42,302 nucleotides of DNA from a virus. Taxonomy: Duplodnaviria; Heunggongvirae; Uroviricota; Caudoviricetes. Location of the stretch: IMG/VR virus record IMGVR_UViG_2713896905_000008; one strand, written 5' to 3'. Made by a program: the position numbers and the translations under genes. The notes beneath the pieces are model-generated. The model saw nothing but the letters and a program-made list of their open reading frames with translations, ran no database searches and was not told the DNA's origin. Position 1 is the stretch's first letter. Each line of letters starts with the position of its first letter. Shown here one piece after another: positions 1-12,329 of the stretch.

Positions 1-759
1 TTAAATTCTGGTCCTTACAATATCAACCTGAAGATTCTTATCTTGTGCAGATTGATAAATGACAAATCTCTTATTTCCTGCATTAAAAGAAGTAGACAAA
101 ACCAGACAATTATCATAACGGGCAAGGACATAATACCAACCATCATTATAATTAATCATTTCATATTCTTTCTTAAACTGTGGTTTGTAATATCCTGTCA
201 GAAATGAAAAAAGCCAAAAGTATGCCACAAAAGAGACCATCACAATCTCAAAAAAATGTTTTTTTATAAATGGCTTATCATAAAAGCATGATACCGATAA
301 AAATCGCCCGTAAAATCTTATCGCAATTGTAACACCCAGTGCAATAGCAGCTGACAGTAGCAAAAGAGGTACCTGAATCTTCTGTCTCAATATAGAAAAC
401 TCAATAATAGCCGGTACAAACAATAATTCCACAGCAAAATAAAGGCGAAATACATTTAGCTCCTGCATAGAGTGTTTTCTTTTCACTGCGAAAAAAAATA
501 CAACGCCAACACCCCAGCCGATAAGAAATATAGCTATGACAATAACTGCAAAAAATAAACTTCTGGCAACATCATCAACACCAGCACCTACAATCCACCA
601 TGGAAAGCCGTAGTAAAAAGAAGTGCCCCAGCCATAGAAATAAGCACTCCCCCACCCAAGGCATCCCATGTAGGCAATAAAAAGTGAAGAACTCCTGAGC
701 AGCGCACCATCCTTCATAACCACCTCAAAACAAGATGATAACATTGATTTACAATTCAT
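1..759 (-). CDS. polytopic membrane protein of unknown function (accessory gene in prophage remnant)
   Basis: Complete 252-aa ORF with stop at 1-3. Translation is dominated by hydrophobic helices (FFAVIVIAIFLIGWGVGVVFFFAV, LLLLSAAIALGVTIAI, IVMVSFVAYFWLFSFL). A+T-rich by eye. No family recognised. Confidence 0.45.
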   Translation of the reverse strand: MNCKSMLSSCFEVVMKDGALLRSSSLFIAYMGCLGWGSAYFYGWGTSFYYGFPWWIVGAGVDDVARSLFFAVIVIAIFLIGWGVGVVFFFAVKRKHSMQELNVFRLYFAVELLFVPAIIEFSILRQKIQVPLLLLSAAIALGVTIAIRFYGRFLSVSCFYDKPFIKKHFFEIVMVSFVAYFWLFSFLTGYYKPQFKKEYEMINYNDGWYYVLARYDNCLVLSTSFNAGNKRFVIYQSAQDKNLQVDIVRTRI

Positions 760-1003
760 AACAAAAGCAATTCAATGCCGTCAAGAGGCTATAGGCTAAA
801 AAACTCTATTACATTGTAGTCAGCATGTTTACTGCACAAGTACAATTCAGAGCATAAAAAAAACCACTCGGCGGCGGGTTTATACATTTCTTATAACATA
901 TCAAATTTGCACAAAATACATGGCTTTCAATCCAGTTTTACAATATAAAACGTGCTTCATTACACCCCTGCATTCAGTAAATGTCTCAGACCTGTTTTTG
1001 ATG

Positions 1004-1246
1004 TCACTCCCACCAGTGATACCAGCTCCTGGTATTCATAGGTCTTACGTCCGCCAGTTCGTTCTTCACACCCTGTGCCGCCAGCCAGATTAACTTCTTC
1101 AGCCGCTCCAGTGTTTTACCTGCAATTTTTCGTGAGCCTGACAGAGCCTTAAACTCGCTCCATGTCCACTGCGTTATGGCAACCTGATGCTCCCAGCGAA
1201 CATTTTCACTGTAACTCCAAAAGAAGTTCTGCCATATAAGACTCAA
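1004..1246 (-). CDS. hypothetical protein (prophage remnant)
   Basis: 80-aa ORF downstream of rusA on the same strand. No motif recognised; may be a gene fragment. Confidence 0.2.
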   Translation of the reverse strand: MSLIWQNFFWSYSENVRWEHQVAITQWTWSEFKALSGSRKIAGKTLERLKKLIWLAAQGVKNELADVRPMNTRSWYHWWE

Positions 1247-1249
1247 ACA

Positions 1250-1675
1250 TCATTCATTCCCCAGTTCGGTGATGGTCAGTTCCAGCTTCCCATCTTTGGT
1301 AACAGGCATATTCACAACACGGTAATCAACGACCTGAGTATCATCCAGCCAGAAACCTGCTTTGGTGAGTGCATCAAAAGCGGCTTTTTGCAGATTATCC
1401 AGGTCACGGCGACGACGATCCGGCATATGGCACTCGATGCAGATTTTCACAGGAGTAACCAAACCCGATATCCAGCATTGAGTCTTTGATGATTCGGGCA
1501 ACGTTATCGCGGTATGCCTGCCCTTTTGCACTGATGTGCGTGCGCCCGCAATTATGCGATAGTAGCGATTATTGATCGACGGCCAGGGTAGTGTGATGTT
1601 GTAAGTATCCACACCTTGATTACCTCCTCTTTCAGCCAGATAACCAACTTTCTCGCCATACCTTCCTGTGCGCAC
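1250..1675 (-). CDS. rusA: RusA-family Holliday-junction resolvase, probably disrupted
   Basis: N-terminal [17 protein letters not shown] and C-terminal [38 protein letters not shown]...ELGNE match RusA as I recall it. The central ~31 codons match RusA only when read in another frame ([31 protein letters not shown]), implying two compensating frameshifts. True start is probably internal to the ORF-track span. Confidence 0.65.
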
Positions 1676-1857
1676 TCTTTTGCATACCCAGCGTCAACAA
1701 AGTGTGTGCGGTGATCGATGCTACATTTCACGTCTGAGTGCTGACTACTAACCAGTTCCACAATCTCAACACTGGTCATGGATGCCTTGTCGTTAAAAAT
1801 TTCTGTACTCACTCTTCCTCCTTTGGGATAAATTCTTTTGATAACGTGCGCATCCAC
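1552..1857 (-). CDS. YbcO-like (DUF1364-type) prophage protein, N-terminus atypical
   Basis: C-terminal [30 protein letters not shown] resembles the nin-region protein that precedes rusA in DLP12-type prophages. Overlaps rusA start as in that arrangement. Confidence 0.45.
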
Positions 1858-1930
1858 ACCTATTGGTGCCGAACCCGTCTTAAGTTATCCTTATGATTTA
1901 TATAAATAAAATAATCAAAGAAGGTTCGAC

Positions 1931-2182
1931 ATGGATTTTGCAACAATTACAAGTAGTGTTGTGTTGAGTGCATGTGTCGCAGGCCTGGCTTCGCTGATTA
2001 ATAGTGCCTGGCAGCGCAAATCAGAACGAAAAATTGAAGTAGAGCATCGGGCTGCAGAAACTCGGGCAAAAATCAGAGAAATGGCTCTTACCCTTGCATT
2101 GAAGGAATGGGAATCTCACCAGGCCGTATCGAAAGCTAAAGGCGGGACGGTCAGCGGCCCGGAAGTTTACGTATTTCGATAA
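1931..2182 (+). CDS. small membrane-anchored protein, unknown function
   Basis: 83-aa ORF with an N-terminal hydrophobic helix (ITSSVVLSACVAGLASLINSAW) followed by a charged helical region. Preceded by AAAGAAGG SD-like sequence. Confidence 0.3.
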   Translation: MDFATITSSVVLSACVAGLASLINSAWQRKSERKIEVEHRAAETRAKIREMALTLALKEWESHQAVSKAKGGTVSGPEVYVFR

Positions 2183-2633
2183 CTTCGTATGCTCAACTCG
2201 ATAGATTCATGATTGAGAATCTCAGACAGACTCAATACGACGCGATGTGCGCAGTCGCAGTGATTCAGGCAGAGATCGAGCGATATCGTGAGAAAAATGG
2301 GCTACTAATGCCATAACCACAGTCAGCGCTTGTCATCTTTCCAAATTCTCATATCAGACTTGCGCCCGATAAACCGACGAAAACTATTTAAAACCCATCG
2401 AGTGAAATAATCTCTAAAACCAAAGAGATACCAGGTGAAAATATTCACGATAAAATGCCCGGTCAGAGCCCCCGATACCGCATGCAAGAACAGTAAAAAA
2501 ATCATATGTGTTCATAAATATCAGCCCTCATCGTTTTGCCTGGCATATCCTTTACCGGCAATCTTCTGTATGCGCTAAGCCTGGATACCACATCACACTT
2601 GATTTAGATCTGTCACGGCGAACTGCCGTTCAA

Positions 2634-3134
2634 GATAAATGCGGGATGCTACTTGCTCTTGTTACTGGACAACGTTTAGGCGATATCTGCAATTTGAAAT
2701 TCTCTGATATCTGGGACGACATGTTGCACATTACTCAGGAAAAAACCGGTTCAAAACTTGCTATTCCGCTTAACCTGAAATGCGATGCTCTGAATATTAC
2801 CCTTCGTGAAGTTATATCTCAGTGCAGGGATGCTGTTGTTAGTAAATATCTGGTCCATTACCGTCACACAACCTCTCAAGCAAACAGAGGGGACCAGGTT
2901 TCTGCAAATACTCTGACAACGGCTTTTAAAAAGGCCAGGGAAAAATGTGGCATAAAATGGGAGCAAGGAACTGCGCCCACATTTCATGAGCAGCGATCTC
3001 TGTCAGAACGGTTATATCGGGAACAGGGTCTGGATACGCAAAAGTTGTTAGGTCATAAATCCAGAAAAATGACCGACCGATACAATGATGATCGTGGTAA
3101 AGACTGGGTTATCGTAGATATGAAAACAGCATAG
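2634..3134 (+). pseudogene. 5'-truncated tyrosine integrase (paralogue of the int at 41175-42302)
   Basis: Translation LLALVTGQRLGDICNLKFSDIWDD...HEQRSLSERLYREQGLDTQKLLGHKS...DRYNDDRGKDW aligns with the C-terminal ~165 aa of the full integrase at the window end. The N-terminal two-thirds are absent; the upstream ORF sequence is unrelated. Confidence 0.8.
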
Positions 3135-3144
3135 AAAATAGCCA

Positions 3145-3180
3145 GTTTTGGGGAAGGGTTTTGGGGAAAGTTTTGGGGAA
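3145..3180. repeat. three tandem copies of GTTTTGGGGAA between the truncated integrase and the icd terminator
   Basis: cagTTTTGGGGAAGGGTTTTGGGGAAAGTTTTGGGGAAga read directly. Confidence 0.7.
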
Positions 3181-3190
3181 GATTTTACAT

Positions 3191-3224
3191 CATCATAAAA
3201 CAACGGGCGTGTTATACGCCCGTT
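3191..3224 (-). terminator. intrinsic terminator following the icd 3' end
   Basis: Perfect stem AACGGGCG/CGCCCGTT with loop, followed on the minus strand by GTTTTAT. Lies about 20 nt past the icd-like stop. Confidence 0.6.
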
Positions 3225-3240
3225 TCAATATTTAACACAT

Positions 3241-3414
3241 GTAGTGATTACATATTCTTGATGATCGCGTCACCAAACTCTGAACATTTCAGCAGCTTAG
3301 CGCCTTCCATCAGACGTTCGAAGTCATAGGTTACGGTCTTCGCATTGATTGCGCCTTCCATACCTTTAACAATCAGGTCTGCGGCTTCAGTCCAGCCCAT
3401 ATGGCGCAGCATTA
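3241..3414 (-). pseudogene. icd: duplicated 3' end of isocitrate dehydrogenase gene (icdC-like att-site duplication)
   Basis: Minus-strand translation [54 protein letters not shown] is the Icd C-terminus. Homology stops abruptly at about 3414, where A+T-rich phage DNA begins. Confidence 0.85.
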
Positions 3415-3471
3415 GTTAGATAACTAAATCGTAACTATTTGACATAGCAGCATAATTTTACTAATTTGCAT

Positions 3472-3506
3472 ATAACTCATTAGCTCTTAGCATTTCCATA
3501 ACTCAT
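3472..3506. repeat. two direct copies of ATAACTCATT next to the att junction (candidate integrase arm-type sites)
   Basis: cATAACTCATTag at 3472 and cATAACTCATTga at 3497, within 100 bp of the icd/phage boundary. Confidence 0.35.
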
Positions 3507-3645
3507 TGATTATCAACATGTGTTTTTGAGTTTTGATAACCATTTTTAGCATAAAAATAGCAGTTAACATTTGCAGAAGTTAAGATCAGAGAAAATTTTT
3601 ACCCTGTAGGGTATTACGTCTTAAATGTGACTTTAATAAACAATT

Positions 3646-4479
3646 TTATTTCTGTAATCGATTTATATTAACGTAAAGCATCTCGATTAGTTCTTTTGCA
3701 TTTTTACTATAGTGCAATTCTCTATGGCAATTCGGACAAAGGGCAACACAGTTATCTGTTGTATCAGCACCACCTGAAGACAGGGGAATTACATGATGCA
3801 CTTCCAAGTATGGGCTTCCATCATTTAAATAAAACGGAGCATTTTTACCACAGTTTTCACATATACCTTTACTTTGCTGTAAAATCCAAGCTTTTACCAT
3901 CGGATCTCGGACATAAACTTTTTGTAGTCTTTCTACCTCAACTGGTTTCCTGGAGCCCTCGGGCTGACTCAACGTTTTCTTAATTAATTTACTAACCCTC
4001 ATATTCAGAAGCGATTCATCATCTGTAGGCTGAGAAAGCTCTGATAGTTCTCCACGTATTATAGACACCCAAAAACTGTCACTATAAATACCTGGAACAT
4101 TTATCAATATTCGTTTCGTTCTATTGCCGGAAGGAATTTCCTTTCTCCCCGTACGACTAAAATAAGCCTGATAACCACACATCTTCAAGCGTATATCGCG
4201 GGGGCTATTACCAATCAAAGTAAAATATTCACCAGGATGGATTTTTCTTTCATCCAAAGAATGCATATGTTTTCTGACTGATGATGACGCCAGATATACT
4301 ACGACTTGGGATACACCAGAATCAACCAACCGTTCAATGATATAATCAAGAGCGATATTGTAATCTTTGTTTCTGTCACCCGGCCCCCACGACTCAAGGA
4401 TTAGACCATAAACACCATCCTCTTCACCTATCAAACACTCAGCTTTCAGTTCAATTCCATTATTATCAAAAACATGCAT
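3646..4479 (-). CDS. mcrA: McrA, type IV 5-methylcytosine-specific restriction endonuclease (HNH)
   Basis: 277-aa translation matches E. coli McrA essentially end to end as I recall it (MHVFDNNGIELKAEC...CENCGKNAPFYLNDG...HHVIPLSSGGADTTDNCVALCPNCHRELH). Same position as in e14, next to pin. Confidence 0.9.
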   Translation of the reverse strand: MHVFDNNGIELKAECLIGEEDGVYGLILESWGPGDRNKDYNIALDYIIERLVDSGVSQVVVYLASSSVRKHMHSLDERKIHPGEYFTLIGNSPRDIRLKMCGYQAYFSRTGRKEIPSGNRTKRILINVPGIYSDSFWVSIIRGELSELSQPTDDESLLNMRVSKLIKKTLSQPEGSRKPVEVERLQKVYVRDPMVKAWILQQSKGICENCGKNAPFYLNDGSPYLEVHHVIPLSSGGADTTDNCVALCPNCHRELHYSKNAKELIEMLYVNINRLQK

Positions 4480-9956: not shown

Positions 9957-11035
9957 CAGAACGGGTCCTCCTGTACTCTGGCTTTTTTCTTTTTCCGCGC
10001 GCCGGGGTCTTCAGGTTCAGGCAGATAAGCATCAGGCGGGCCGACACGGATTTCCGTCAGGGTGCCGTTCTGGTCCTGAGTAAACGTGACTTCCGAAACA
10101 AGCAGTTCGGTATTGTCAAAACCACAGACCGGATCAAAGACAATCACCCGCTGGTTGGGTTGCCACAGCGTACCGTTACCCTGTCGCCAGCCCTGCACCA
10201 CATAGGTGGTTTCATCCGTCCGCGCCGCCCGTTGCCGGGCTTCAAAGTCAGCACGCGCAATACAGCCTGCCCCCGTAGCCTGCCCTGTCTGCCTGATATA
10301 CATCGGACGGTAACGGGCAATAAATGCGTCCTCTGTGCGGGCCCGCAGCGCGGTGGTGGTGGCCTCACCGAAATCATCGTCGTTTCCGGCACGCTGCCCC
10401 GCCACCTGGTAAACAGAAAACCGCTCCCGGATACTCTTCTCCGTATCGCAGGAAAGGATGTTTTCCCCAAGTACCAGCGCGGTATGTGCCCGCGTTGAGC
10501 CAATACCACCAATCACCAGCCTGCCGTGCGGGTCGTCGTAAGCCAGCGCCTGCTGCTGACCGAGTATTTTGTTGATCACCTCAATCACCGTTTCACCGTG
10601 ATCAGGCTGGACATCAGGAATAACACCCGACGGCGCACCGCTGTTCACCACCTCAATGCCGAAAGGCGCAGCAAGCGCCTGCGCAATCTGTACCAGCGAT
10701 CGTCCGTTAAACTGTGTCGGTTCGGCTGCACAGTCAATCAGGTCAGCGGTCAGACTACGTCCGGCAATACCGGTGCTGACCGAACGGGCATCGTAACGAA
10801 CGGGCGTCGCCTCCACCCAGCCGGTGATCACCAGCTCATCACCAATCAGCACCTCCACTTTTGAACCGTTTTTAATGCGCGACTGAAGCGTGGTAATACC
10901 CTCATCTCCCGGCCACTGGCGGGTGATCTCCACACTGAAATCCCGCGCCAGTCGTTCAACACCGGCACCGATGCGCACCGATGTCCAGCCATTCCACTCC
11001 CGGCCATTTACCCGTAGCGTGACGTTATCGTTCAT
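9956..11035 (-). CDS. baseplate hub / late-control D-like protein (Mu P, gp44-like)
   Basis: 359 aa with N-terminal TLRVNGREW motif and C-terminal lysine-rich tail; position after the DNA-circulation gene. Confidence 0.7.
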   Translation of the reverse strand: MNDNVTLRVNGREWNGWTSVRIGAGVERLARDFSVEITRQWPGDEGITTLQSRIKNGSKVEVLIGDELVITGWVEATPVRYDARSVSTGIAGRSLTADLIDCAAEPTQFNGRSLVQIAQALAAPFGIEVVNSGAPSGVIPDVQPDHGETVIEVINKILGQQQALAYDDPHGRLVIGGIGSTRAHTALVLGENILSCDTEKSIRERFSVYQVAGQRAGNDDDFGEATTTALRARTEDAFIARYRPMYIRQTGQATGAGCIARADFEARQRAARTDETTYVVQGWRQGNGTLWQPNQRVIVFDPVCGFDNTELLVSEVTFTQDQNGTLTEIRVGPPDAYLPEPEDPGARKKKKARVQEDPF

Positions 11036-11057
11036 TGCACTGGCACCTTCAGAGGGA

Positions 11058-12329
11058 TCACCGGCACAAAGCCGGGATGCGTAATGGCATTACGCCGGAT
11101 AATGTCCGCGTCACGCGCCGCGTTATCAAACCAGGTCGCCGCCAGCACCAGCGCGGGTAAAACCTCACCCGGCGCAGCGCCAGAAACAGCGCATCACTGG
11201 TTGTACGGGACAACTCCTTATCAATTGCCGTATTCAGTGTGTCGCGAATGTCGGTCAGTTCTTCCCACGTTGGCAGGTCAACCGTGTTTTTCACCGCCGG
11301 TGCATTGTTCAGTGCCGGATGCGTGACAGAAGGCCAGCCGGTGCTCTGCGCGGGTGTTGTTGACTGCCCCACTGTGGCATTCTGCATCACCGCGGAAGTT
11401 GTGGGCGCAGGCAATCGTGTGACGGCATACGCCGCTTCGCTGATTGCGGTCGTACGAAGGGTGCTGGCAACCACGTTACGCTGCTGCGTCGCCGTGGCGG
11501 TGGTTTTACTGTCCGTTTTCCAGACGCCGCGCGGTTGCAGATCGCTGCCGAGGCTGACACCGGAAAGCGTTTTGATCATGGTGACCAGGTCGCTGGCGTT
11601 ACCATAAAGGCGTTTCCCGGTACGCCACATTTTCTGCACCTGCTCAACGAAATTTTTGCCTGACGATGGCGGCGGCAGAAGTACCGAGATATCCCCCTGC
11701 AACAGCCTGGCGGCATCCGATACGGCAGAATCCACCACTTTCATCGCATCAGAAACATACCCAAGCATTGTGCTGGCATTACCGACGACGTCGTTCTGCA
11801 CAAAATCTGCCACGCCATCGATACTGAAACCACTGAAGCTGTCACTGATGCAGTCATCCAGTGCAGAACAGGATGACATCAGCGTCTGCGCCGTCGCCGC
11901 ACCTGAAGTGGGGTAAGAGAGTTCTCCCGCTTCGACAAACTTCAGGTCAAAGCGGACAATACGCCCTTCACTCTTCGATGTGCTGACCCGAACTTCCCCG
12001 TCAACACAGACTTTCAGCTCACCGTAAGTCGGATGGACAAGCGTGCCGGGACCGGGTTTATTCAGCGCGTCAATCAGGCGATCGCGCTGGTCAAAGCAGT
12101 CATCTCCCACCACATAAGCTGTGATGGACGGGCGGAAAGTGATTTTCCCCAGGTCTTCGGTATAGGGTTTGTCGCGGTTCGGATATTCGTGTGTTTCCAC
12201 ACGACGGCCGGTTCCCGCACTTTCTTCTTCAACCTTAAACGGCACACCGCGAAATGACGCGTCCTGAAGTCTGTCTTTCCACGTCATATAAACTCCGTAC
12301 ATAAAAAATCCCACCGGAGTGGGACTCAT
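11058..12329 (-). CDS. DNA circulation protein (Mu N, gp43-like)
   Basis: About 410 aa downstream of the tape measure gene. N-terminal WKDRLQDASFRGVPFKVEEES is characteristic. Start is probably an internal Met. Confidence 0.65.
   Translation of the reverse strand: MSPTPVGFFMYGVYMTWKDRLQDASFRGVPFKVEEESAGTGRRVETHEYPNRDKPYTEDLGKITFRPSITAYVVGDDCFDQRDRLIDALNKPGPGTLVHPTYGELKVCVDGEVRVSTSKSEGRIVRFDLKFVEAGELSYPTSGAATAQTLMSSCSALDDCISDSFSGFSIDGVADFVQNDVVGNASTMLGYVSDAMKVVDSAVSDAARLLQGDISVLLPPPSSGKNFVEQVQKMWRTGKRLYGNASDLVTMIKTLSGVSLGSDLQPRGVWKTDSKTTATATQQRNVVASTLRTTAISEAAYAVTRLPAPTTSAVMQNATVGQSTTPAQSTGWPSVTHPALNNAPAVKNTVDLPTWEELTDIRDTLNTAIDKELSRTTSDALFLALRRVRFYPRWCWRRPGLITRRVTRTLSGVMPLRIPALCR

Follow-up and report, generated by a model that had tools for sequence, protein, structure and literature searches.

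The gene at the start of the window (the whole stretch of 42,302 nucleotides that was analyzed) belongs, as judged by profile match and alignment, to the already catalogued STM1630/TfpB family and corresponds to phage 434 gene 68. The window derives from an E. albertii-like genome, where the gene lies in a dead lambdoid prophage remnant beside icd; comparison between strains indicates that it is under purifying selection there and has been domesticated as a host gene. It illustrates cleanly how an accessory gene of a prophage can, through purifying selection, survive the phage that carried it. The finding in itself is of small importance and its value modest; the gene is ordinary, already deposited, present in Pfam and PHROGs and near-identical to an annotated phage 434 gene. 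Overall, we read it as a domesticated moron for a non-enzymatic, periplasm-facing membrane protein. With topology, promoter and benefit being the parts that we infer, this reading may equally well prove right or wrong.

Coding sequence, family and predicted structure

The following features define the gene:

1–759, minus strand: open reading frame of 252 codons, with ATG start and TAA stop (1–3)
1–717, minus strand: probable coding sequence of an STM1630/TfpB family inner-membrane protein (238 aa), from ATG 715–717 to TAA 1–3
718–759, minus strand: in-frame 5' extension of the 252-codon frame, with the ATGs M1 and M6 and the sequence GAGGTGG

The original prediction, made from the DNA letters, described a complete, A+T-rich orphan gene for a 252-aa multi-pass membrane protein. 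Completeness and composition were confirmed: the frame runs for 252 codons from ATG to TAA, a stop-free length with a chance of ~3e-8 at the given composition, and its GC content is 36.1% (GC3 31%), against 49.1% in the entire window. The length of 252 aa did not hold. Translation probably starts at M15, giving a product of 238 aa, because the full-length homologues begin there and a GAGGTGG Shine-Dalgarno sequence (720–726) lies just ahead. In the alignment, ~60 full-length homologues of 236–238 aa start at the M15 equivalent, and the more distant ETEC homologue has a GTG start behind GAGGT at the equivalent place. The phage 434 record gives a 247-aa product from an upstream ATG, a start that the wider family does not support. 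Positions 718–759 are thus most likely an untranslated leader.

Nor is the gene an orphan, since the family comprises >100 clusters at 90% identity. The product matched the PHROG 1521 profile with E = 2.7e-150 (residues 31–252), and the PF27470 'TfpB' tag is precomputed for the exact product and nearly all homologues. One E. coli homologue is labelled 'STM1630 family protein' in RefSeq, and the copy of E. albertii KF1 has been deposited as 'membrane protein' (AHE58203.1). Amino acid identity over all 238 residues was 97.1% with phage 434 gene 68 (CPT_434_68, UMO75332.1, 'putative membrane protein') and 95.8% with phage 2B8 gp58; E. coli WP_001302581.1 likewise ranks among the closest known counterparts. 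The motif AY.G..GWGSAYFYGWG.S.YYGFPWW, followed by D[DN][IV]ARSL, was invariant or nearly so in 31 enterobacterial sequences, and the N-terminal aromatic/glycine motif was still recognisable in members from Pasteurellaceae and Neisseriaceae. Across the alignments of the whole family, only Y26 and G175 were invariant, and no charged residue (His, Asp, Glu, Arg, Lys) was conserved. The protein matched local Pfam-A, NCBIfam and PADLOC models at noise level only, as did the 68 aligned family members when all were scanned against Pfam, and a profile search of PDB sequences returned nothing under E = 2.

The multi-pass character was borne out by four strong Kyte-Doolittle peaks and one weaker N-terminal segment. 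A first AlphaFold model, for which 31 close sequences were used, was of low quality (pLDDT 61.5), and its fold search was meaningless. A second model (pLDDT 79.5, pTM 0.74) contained five long helices and five strands, with a C-terminal beta domain of ~55 aa. The protein shares the architecture of its family, in which five helices precede a C-terminal beta domain (YY.L ... IL ... F motif) within ~238 aa. The K+R count per loop fits an N-in/C-out topology, an assignment based on charge count and not on a dedicated predictor, and these loop charges suggest that the C-terminal beta domain is periplasmic. Foldseek searches of PDB and BFVD with the second model gave no significant match, the best being an MscS-like protein (E = 0.43) and an 89-aa phage protein (E = 0.026). 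SH3-like resemblances of the C-terminal domain to those of HIV integrase and KorB were weak, and we did not build on them.

We considered a surface-modifying enzyme of the Gtr or Oac/acyltransferase type and rejected it, as there was no family match and there were no conserved catalytic residues; the family-wide lack of conserved charged residues argues against any modifying enzyme. A housekeeping transporter or enzyme that merely adjoins the remnant would likewise be a multi-pass membrane protein, and the homologues in Pasteurellaceae and Neisseriaceae do lie among housekeeping genes. However, no Pfam or NCBIfam transporter or enzyme match rose above noise, neither sequence nor fold matched in PDB, and no charged residue is conserved. 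As to homology with a housekeeping transporter conserved in remnant-free strains, which the original prediction had named as the contrary outcome, we found no transporter matches, and the gene was detectable in 1198 of 5426 complete E. coli genomes (22%), at 1–4 places per genome and, where inspected, beside phage Q or on plasmids. The family also has only 73 representative clusters among 1.84 billion proteins. The housekeeping explanation is effectively refuted and is very improbable.

Late-region position and decay of the remnant

The gene is surrounded by the following features of the remnant and its boundary:

735–764, minus strand: promoter-like site A (TTGTTA, 18 nt, TG-n-TATCAT extended -10), a consensus match only
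755–784, minus strand: promoter-like site B (-35 TTGACG at 779–784, 18 nt, TG-n-TATGAA), a consensus match read by eye
855–880, minus strand: remnant of the late terminator tR', with a hairpin (863–875) followed by a U run, from alignment with phage 434
915–943, minus strand: putative remnant of the late promoter pR' (TTGTAA, 17 nt, TGTATT)
927–1246, minus strand: fragment of a Q82-type antiterminator, 5' truncated and with an 81-bp internal deletion
1250–1675, minus strand: rusA-like Holliday-junction resolvase ORF of the same lambdoid remnant
2508–3134, plus strand: C-terminal fragment of a tyrosine integrase, matching PHROG 1 and PHROG 216
3258–3412, minus strand: duplicated 3' end of icd, inside which the alignment of the window with KF1 ends

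A polytopic membrane protein in a decayed prophage had been predicted, and this proved correct, the remnant being lambdoid. The Q fragment matched PHROG 304 (E = 1.1e-23) over profile positions 106–163 of 224, and its KF1 counterpart is called as a 69-aa Phage_antiter_Q fragment. In several other E. albertii strains, only a 58-aa fragment of rusA is left, and sister strains carry integrase fragments of 137–175 aa. The integrase fragment marks the inner end of the remnant by the icd attachment site. The icd duplicate separates the lambdoid remnant (1–3257) from a prophage with mcrA (3646–4479) and Mu-type tail genes, which is e14-like as judged by the features of E. coli e14.

The gene had also been taken for the last recognisable one, at the outer edge of the element. 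This is an artefact of the window, which stops at the gene's stop codon. The KF1 genome of E. albertii stays homologous to phage 434 for 167 bp beyond the stop and then for another 384 bp, covering a DUF3927/TciB gene and a gene for a small membrane protein; an omptin gene comes next. The adjacency to TciB/DUF3927 was considered as a clue to colicin resistance and dropped, the name being an annotation by similarity.

The upstream region (760–1003) had been described as the gene's own. Instead, it aligned with annotated phage 434 sequence and represents a degenerate lambdoid late-promoter leader with remnants of pR' and tR' and the 3' end of Q. Compared to phage 434, the tR' remnant carries a 1-nt deletion and one substitution, and its folding energy is weakened from -13.3 to -9.1 kcal/mol. 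We assigned pR' from our reading of the sequence that directly precedes the annotated terminator in phage 434 (TTGCAA, 17 nt, TATACT); in the putative remnant, the -10 hexamer no longer has its key A at position 2. An Rfam scan of positions 1–3600 detected no family near the gene.

Two promoter-like sites lie closer to the gene. Site A would initiate transcription just upstream of the ribosome-binding site, and phages 434 and 2B8 as well as E. coli 95-3192 carry its sequence too. The frame of site B, CCTCTTGACG ... TTTGTTATG, is kept even in the 59%-identical homologue of an ETEC plasmid. Note that 5 promoter-like sites were counted in the region, against 3.4 expected by chance.

In phage 434, gene 68 is the first gene of the late operon after Q, pR' and tR' and is followed by DUF3927/TciB, esterase and holin genes; phage 2B8 and an E. 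coli prophage show the same order. The class II holin gene lies 2.8 kb downstream of gene 68. In the viable derivative 434B, ~5.5 kb comprising Q, the late promoter and the lysis region are replaced by DLP12 DNA (PMC9119081), and the region of 434B non-homology marked in the phage 434 record includes gene 68. Based on this position after Q and tR' and on the lack of the region in viable 434B, the gene is to be classed as a lambdoid late-region moron, a dispensable accessory cargo gene between Q/pR'/tR' and the holin gene. A holin or lysis-cassette protein was ruled out by the size of 238 aa, the five helices, the distance from the holin gene and the dispensability of the region.

The gene could still serve the phage in a late function, such as membrane preparation, lysis timing or progeny release, with the remnant copy merely not yet decayed. 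It is the first gene of the Q-dependent late transcript and on the same strand, and in phage 434 it is followed by genes for two small membrane proteins and for an esterase and by the lysis cassette, an order repeated in phage 2B8 and the E. coli prophage. However, 434B is viable without the region, the protein is unchanged in a remnant that lacks Q, a working pR' and lysis genes, and homologues occur on plasmids and in chromosomes without surrounding phage genes. Moreover, a -10 box has been mapped for the Salmonella copy itself, which is induced in macrophages (PMC6785131 S1 Text). We consider a phage-side function distinctly unlikely.

Retention of the gene in E. albertii

The original prediction held that the gene might be selected cargo, and this was supported: its neighbours are decayed, while an identical 238-aa protein is encoded on 92 E. 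albertii contigs. The architecture icd, int', rusA', gene, omptin, ymgD recurred in 10 further E. albertii loci with variably decayed neighbours; these loci were retrieved by exact protein identity, so that their lack of amino acid variation is partly by construction. Around the intact gene, truncations or mutations affect the Q, pR', tR', int and PD-Lambda-6 sequences.

Between the window and KF1, 2 of 717 sites differed in the gene, both synonymously, compared to 45 of 2695 in the flanks (Fisher p = 0.002), an about six-fold lower divergence. Nucleotide diversity was 0.0011 in the gene and 0.004–0.03 in the flanks. Relative to the phage 434 copy, dN/dS was 0.06. The ORF, start codon and ribosome-binding site were intact in 12/12 sequences compared. 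A non-functional ORF drifting neutrally in a pseudogenised remnant would fit the damage to every neighbouring phage gene and the mutated late promoter, but the low dN/dS, the reduced divergence between the two strains and the intact ORF, start and ribosome-binding site argue against it. We regard neutral drift as unlikely in the extreme. The gene appears instead to be domesticated, because its Q-dependent route of expression is broken and yet it has stayed intact under purifying selection.

The expression of the gene may have changed as follows. In live lambdoid phages it comes first behind Q, pR' and tR' and hence would be read with the late operon. In the E. albertii remnant, truncation of Q, mutation of the pR' -10 hexamer and weakening of tR' would have broken Q-dependent expression, and transcription presumably starts from one of the two putative sigma-70-like sites just upstream. 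The product would have its N-terminus inside and five helices and be non-enzymatic. Its GWGSAYFYGWG.S.YYGFPWW motif and small SH3-like beta domain are predicted to face the periplasm, and the proposed interaction is with a partner in the envelope or periplasm.

Possible function and relation to known systems

Experimental data for the family are limited to STM1630 and point to host infection, not phage exclusion. The Salmonella homologue P0074 is STM1630, which sits between sseJ and a 133-aa ORF of the size of steB; the published STM1630 deletion primer encodes NSSMLLAYLGGLGWG. STM1630 is bound by H-NS, and its expression was seen in SPI-2-inducing medium and within macrophages (PMC6785131 S1 Text; PMC2639726), and the -10 box of its promoter has been mapped (PMC6785131 S1 Text). 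Signature-tagged mutants were reported to be attenuated in calves and chicks, and deletion in strain 4/74 altered intramacrophage replication, which was increased (PMC6785131 S1 Text; PMC2639726). These phenotypes are modest and partly inconsistent, and one motility phenotype comes from a single screen.

Other locations of family members also point toward a role in the host. On ETEC plasmids they lie 0.9 kb from eltAB. Shigella plasmids with a family member number 106; the S. flexneri record that we inspected places the gene ~5 kb from spa40, and one Shigella record names the product 'TfpB protein'. One member in Glaesserella adjoins the cdt genes, and the Salmonella gene occupies the sseJ-steB islet. 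Note that closeness to toxin and effector genes could be due only to a common Q-S insertion hot spot and to the general A+T-richness of acquired DNA. Members in Pasteurellaceae and Neisseriaceae are solitary single-gene insertions at differing chromosomal sites, with 2–3 copies in some genomes, and all named taxa of the family are animal-associated Gram-negatives. Our best guess, a tentative one, is that the benefit lies in an envelope function during colonisation of the animal host. It is possible, though doubtful, that STM1630/TfpB proteins are an unrecognised, widespread single-gene envelope cargo, non-enzymatic, periplasm-facing and toxin/effector-linked, that confers a colonisation advantage. 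If this is true, the advantage in animal-associated Gram-negatives would be strong enough to preserve the gene in a dead E. albertii prophage.

Superinfection exclusion, which the original prediction had suggested, or membrane defence, with the protein blocking phage injection or colicin entry at the inner membrane, would account for an accessory gene at the classic lambdoid moron position that selection has maintained in a dead prophage. The protein's conserved surfaces are predicted to lie in the periplasm, on the route of incoming phage DNA, and the solitary insertions at different sites in Pasteurellaceae and Neisseriaceae, with more than one copy in some genomes, would fit as well. However, the protein had 0 matches to 5027 PADLOC defence models, PHROG 1521 carries no function label, and there was no significant fold match in PDB or BFVD. 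The restriction of the named taxa to animal-associated Gram-negatives is unlike the usual broad range of defence genes, and the family's only experimental phenotypes concern host infection. Exclusion, which we rank second to our best guess, is unlikely. P22 SieA, T4 Imm, HK97 gp15 and lambda RexB are superinfection-exclusion membrane proteins. Like the E. albertii protein, they are accessory proteins of phages or prophages in the inner membrane, dispensable for phage growth; they share no sequence or profile similarity with it, and it is larger, with five helices and a beta domain.

An envelope-directed function of use to the host remains our preferred guess. The phage 434 system and Salmonella mutants make the family experimentally approachable. 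One family now links several proteins labelled as hypothetical, namely those of phage 434 gene 68, prophage genes of many E. coli including O157:H7 strains, ORFs of ETEC LT-plasmids and Shigella plasmids, and STM1630. The Pfam name presumably stems from Moraxella TfpB, an ORF in the pilin-inversion region. The likeness to it is in the family name alone, by way of the PF27470 tag and the one Shigella record; a single genome-collection scan matched Pasteurellaceae and Neisseria but no Moraxella, and the literature on TfpB, TciA/TciB and DUF3927 contained nothing relevant to the protein that we could find.

The ORFs on the ETEC and Shigella virulence plasmids are 56–59% identical to the E. albertii protein over the full length and keep the start and ribosome-binding site, and the ETEC copy also retains the upstream frame TTGACG ... 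TTTGTTATG. They differ in being plasmid-borne and IS-flanked, with no Q or terminator upstream. STM1630 likewise has 717 bp and 238 aa, the same motif and architecture and 47% identity, and lies in A+T-rich acquired DNA, alone without phage genes. In contrast to the E. albertii gene, it is placed between the effector genes sseJ and steB, and its upstream region is unrelated. A mapped -10 box, SPI-2-type expression, H-NS binding and infection phenotypes are on record for STM1630 (PMC6785131 S1 Text). The closest systems are phages 434 and 2B8, which share the upstream leader, the terminator and the 3' end of Q with the E. albertii remnant; the downstream DUF3927 gene is common to the phages and the sister E. 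albertii genomes. Both phages have intact Q, pR' and tR', and the gene forms part of a working late operon there, whereas here these elements are decayed and the gene alone survives.

Gene model and family membership

As the original prediction had described, positions 1-759 contain a complete open reading frame of 252 codons. It is on the minus strand and runs from ATG to a TAA at 1-3; given the base composition of the ORF, a stop-free run of this length has a chance of ~3e-8. Its GC content of 36% (GC3 31%), compared to 49% for the window, bears out the reported A+T-richness. The product is most likely shorter than the 252 aa first assigned. A GAGGTGG motif (720-726) lies just 5' of the third in-frame ATG (M15, 715-717), and ~60 full-length homologues (236-238 aa) begin at the equivalent of M15 in the alignment, which argues for a protein of 238 aa encoded at 1-717. 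The hydropathy profile shows four strongly hydrophobic stretches plus a weaker one at the N-terminus. Since the ORF, the hydropathy and a five-helix structural model agree, the assignment as a multi-pass membrane protein stands.

The protein, initially regarded as an orphan, belongs to the STM1630/TfpB family. The HMM search suggested with the original prediction matched PHROG 1521 (E = 2.7e-150), and the protein carries the Pfam tag PF27470 'TfpB' in the protein collection; scans with NCBIfam, PADLOC and a Pfam copy older than PF27470 returned no matches for it. Homologues are named 'STM1630 family protein' in one RefSeq E. coli record and 'TfpB protein' in one Shigella record. The family is small, as an exhaustive profile search of 1.84 billion proteins recovered 73 representative clusters at E <= 0.001. 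Its nearest relatives come from sequenced phages, namely CPT_434_68 (gene 68, 'putative membrane protein') of phage 434, with 97.1% identity across all 238 residues, and gp58 of phage 2B8, with 95.8% identity, so the orphan label does not apply. E. albertii strain KF1 (CP007025) encodes a protein identical to the 252-aa product. As a sequence, the gene is already known, being deposited, catalogued and near-identical to an annotated phage 434 gene.

Late-operon position and decay of Q-dependent expression

The gene order in phage 434 is a Q82-type antiterminator, an annotated terminator, gene 68, DUF3927 'TciB' (an assignment confirmed by a separate check), a small membrane protein, a SASA esterase, a class II holin and an endolysin. 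An identical order was found in one E. coli prophage. In 434B, a viable clear-plaque derivative of phage 434, ~5.5 kb including Q (the late antiterminator), the late promoter and the lysis region has been swapped for DLP12 DNA (PMC9119081, genome announcement), and the stretch marked in the phage 434 record as non-homologous in 434B takes in gene 68. Because the viable derivative has replaced the region containing gene 68, the gene is an accessory member ('moron') of the late operon and dispensable.

Positions 760-1246 align with the Q-to-gene-68 region of phage 434, and what was originally taken for the gene's own upstream region represents a degraded late leader of this type. Relative to phage 434, the Q remnant lacks its 5' end and has an 81-bp deletion, and the hairpin of the late terminator tR' is weaker (folding energy -9.1 versus -13.3 kcal/mol). 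The Q-dependent route of expression has decayed. Two sigma-70-like sites are present between the terminator and the start codon, and transcription may start from one of them.

Features upstream of the gene
915-943, minus strand: putative late promoter pR' (TTGTAA, 17 nt, TGTATT; phage 434, TTGCAA, 17 nt, TATACT), assigned by our own reading of the phage 434 sequence
855-943, minus strand: degraded unit of the short pR'-tR' late leader transcript, from the phage 434 alignment
779-784: near-consensus TTGACG of sigma-70-like site 2, a consensus match only; frame kept in the 59%-identical ETEC homologue
735-764: sigma-70-like site 1, a consensus match only

In Shiga-toxin phages, the equivalent short pR'-tR' transcript is described as a regulatory small RNA.

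The remnant at icd and selection on the gene

The remnant adjoins icd, at the e14 attachment site, and positions 1-3412 align with KF1 at 98.3% identity.

Features of the remnant, from the icd side, and of the neighbouring prophage
3258-3412: icd 3' duplicate
2508-3134: integrase fragment
1931-2182, plus strand: N-terminal fragment of PD-Lambda-6, 83 of 131 aa (PADLOC E = 1.1e-48)
1250-1675: rusA
between rusA and the gene: Q fragment
1-717, minus strand: gene under study
3646-4479: mcrA of the e14-like prophage, 277 aa (PADLOC E = 1.9e-200)

Q, pR', tR' and the integrase are all degraded or fragmentary, in agreement with the description of a decayed element. In contrast, the placement of the gene as the last recognizable one at the outer edge is an artefact: the window ends at its stop codon, so nothing past the gene is visible, and in KF1 phage 434 homology runs 167 bp beyond the stop into a DUF3927 gene and resumes for 384 bp after a repeat insertion. 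This insertion is a tandem repeat encoding GLWDCGIV units (KF1 locus L002, ~10927-11063) inside the DUF3927/TciB homology. In all E. albertii loci examined, an omptin gene (~1.3 kb downstream; DNA ~75% identical to E. coli ompT) is followed by ymgD.

The icd site is doubly occupied, by the old lambdoid remnant and, to the right of the duplicated icd 3' end, by a separate e14-like prophage, which extends to ~12300 and carries a pin-type invertase, invertible tail-fibre genes and Mu-type baseplate/tail genes. Of the anti-phage gene PD-Lambda-6, KF1 (L002 8434-8829) and two further E. albertii loci have the complete 131-aa version and one more locus has a version of 123 aa; the window and several additional strains carry truncated copies. 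A 10-bp indel near 2198 distinguishes the window from KF1.

The gene is under purifying selection. Compared to the phage 434 copy, it has 29 synonymous and 7 non-synonymous differences (dN/dS 0.06). Between the window and KF1, the 717 bp of the gene carry 2 substitutions, neither of which alters the protein, versus 45 in 2695 bp for the rest of the aligned stretch (Fisher p = 0.002). Both results support the proposal of selected cargo. The exact 238-aa sequence occurs on 92 contigs labelled E. albertii. Among 10 further E. albertii loci, the remnant layout is unchanged and the neighbours are variable, with rusA of 58 or 141 aa, PD-Lambda-6 of 83, 123 or 131 aa, an integrase fragment of 137-175 aa, and an icd site that is empty or contains a GmrSD gene (L039) or an e14-like element. 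Nucleotide diversity is 0.0011 in the gene versus 0.004-0.03 in flanking segments. Note that these loci were retrieved by exact protein identity, so part of their amino-acid uniformity follows from how they were chosen; the comparisons with KF1 and phage 434 are unaffected. We conclude that the gene is kept by selection inside a dead element. A purely phage-side late function, which the late-operon position favours and the decayed Q-dependent route disfavours, appears quite improbable.

Topology, distribution and possible benefit

With 31 close sequences as input, the structural model was poor (pLDDT 61.5), whereas 68 family-wide sequences gave one with pLDDT 79.5 and pTM 0.74. The latter contains long helices at 3-36, 47-79, 84-111, 116-137 and 155-181, two short helices between 142 and 153, and five strands between 184 and 235. 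A fold search in PDB and BFVD gave no significant match; the C-terminal domain had weak SH3-like matches. In the alignment, the K+R count is 1.4 at the N-terminus, 2.4 in loop 2 and 3.1 in loop 4, versus 0.25 in loop 1 (with 1.6 acidic residues). Read with the positive-inside rule, these values would place the N-terminus inside and put the C-terminal domain in the periplasm, together with loop 1 and the invariant aromatic motif. Only Y26 and G175 are invariant family-wide and no charged residue is conserved across the alignment, which argues against an enzyme or ion-coupled transporter. A protein oriented N-in/C-out would then work by binding a partner through conserved periplasmic surfaces rather than by catalysis. 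Exclusion of phage or colicin entry would be one possible benefit; we consider it unlikely.

A copy is detectable in 1198 of 5426 complete E. coli genomes, at 1-4 places per genome, the best matches adjoining Q. On ETEC plasmids (L033-L036, 5001-5714), a 59%-identical member lies 0.9 kb from eltAB (heat-labile enterotoxin), in divergent orientation. All four distinct ETEC contexts that were retrieved show this adjacency, with the STb gene at a distance of 3 kb; the arrangement could derive from a phage late region that once surrounded the toxin genes. A 56%-identical copy is present on 106 Shigella plasmids. In the one S. flexneri record inspected (L037 6001-6717), it lies ~5 kb from spa40, where the type III secretion region ends, and an IS91 transposase is close by; the gene table for these plasmids is incomplete. 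A Klebsiella member adjoins umuDC. Pasteurellaceae and Neisseriaceae have solitary members among housekeeping genes, and in Glaesserella parasuis (L016 6001-9044) the member is directly beside a three-gene cluster with cdt genes. Both outer genes of the cluster score against the CdtA/C domain (E = 3.7e-14 and 5.5e-43); the one between them is CdtB-sized (277 aa), with zero matches in a Pfam search. Mannheimia and Aggregatibacter carry two or three diverged copies per genome at unrelated chromosomal sites, amid dnaK, lldD and ABC transporters and without phage genes nearby (L005, L007, L008, L009, L013, L014, L017, L018, L025).

The Salmonella homologue, between sseJ and a 133-aa steB-sized ORF, is STM1630, since its N-terminal motif is encoded in the primer that was published for deleting that gene. 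STM1630 is bound by H-NS, is expressed in SPI-2-inducing medium and macrophages, and in ST313 strains has an inactivated -10 box; attenuation of signature-tagged mutants was seen in both calves and chicks, the deletion caused no growth defect, and strain 4/74 lacking STM1630 showed increased intramacrophage replication (PMC6785131 S1 Text). It belongs to a set of SPI-2 co-regulated genes (PMC2639726). Hypermotility was reported in a single screen, and a later unmarked-deletion study warns that screen effects could be polar.

An envelope function used in animal-host colonization is the benefit that we tentatively favour, given the Salmonella data, the confinement of named members to animal-associated Gram-negatives and the recurrent toxin/effector neighbourhoods. 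The toxin neighbourhoods may reflect only a common Q-S insertion hot spot. The remaining probability falls to some other benefit. What is of interest is that one uncharacterized family unites phage 434 gene 68, many E. coli prophage genes, ETEC and Shigella plasmid ORFs and Salmonella STM1630.
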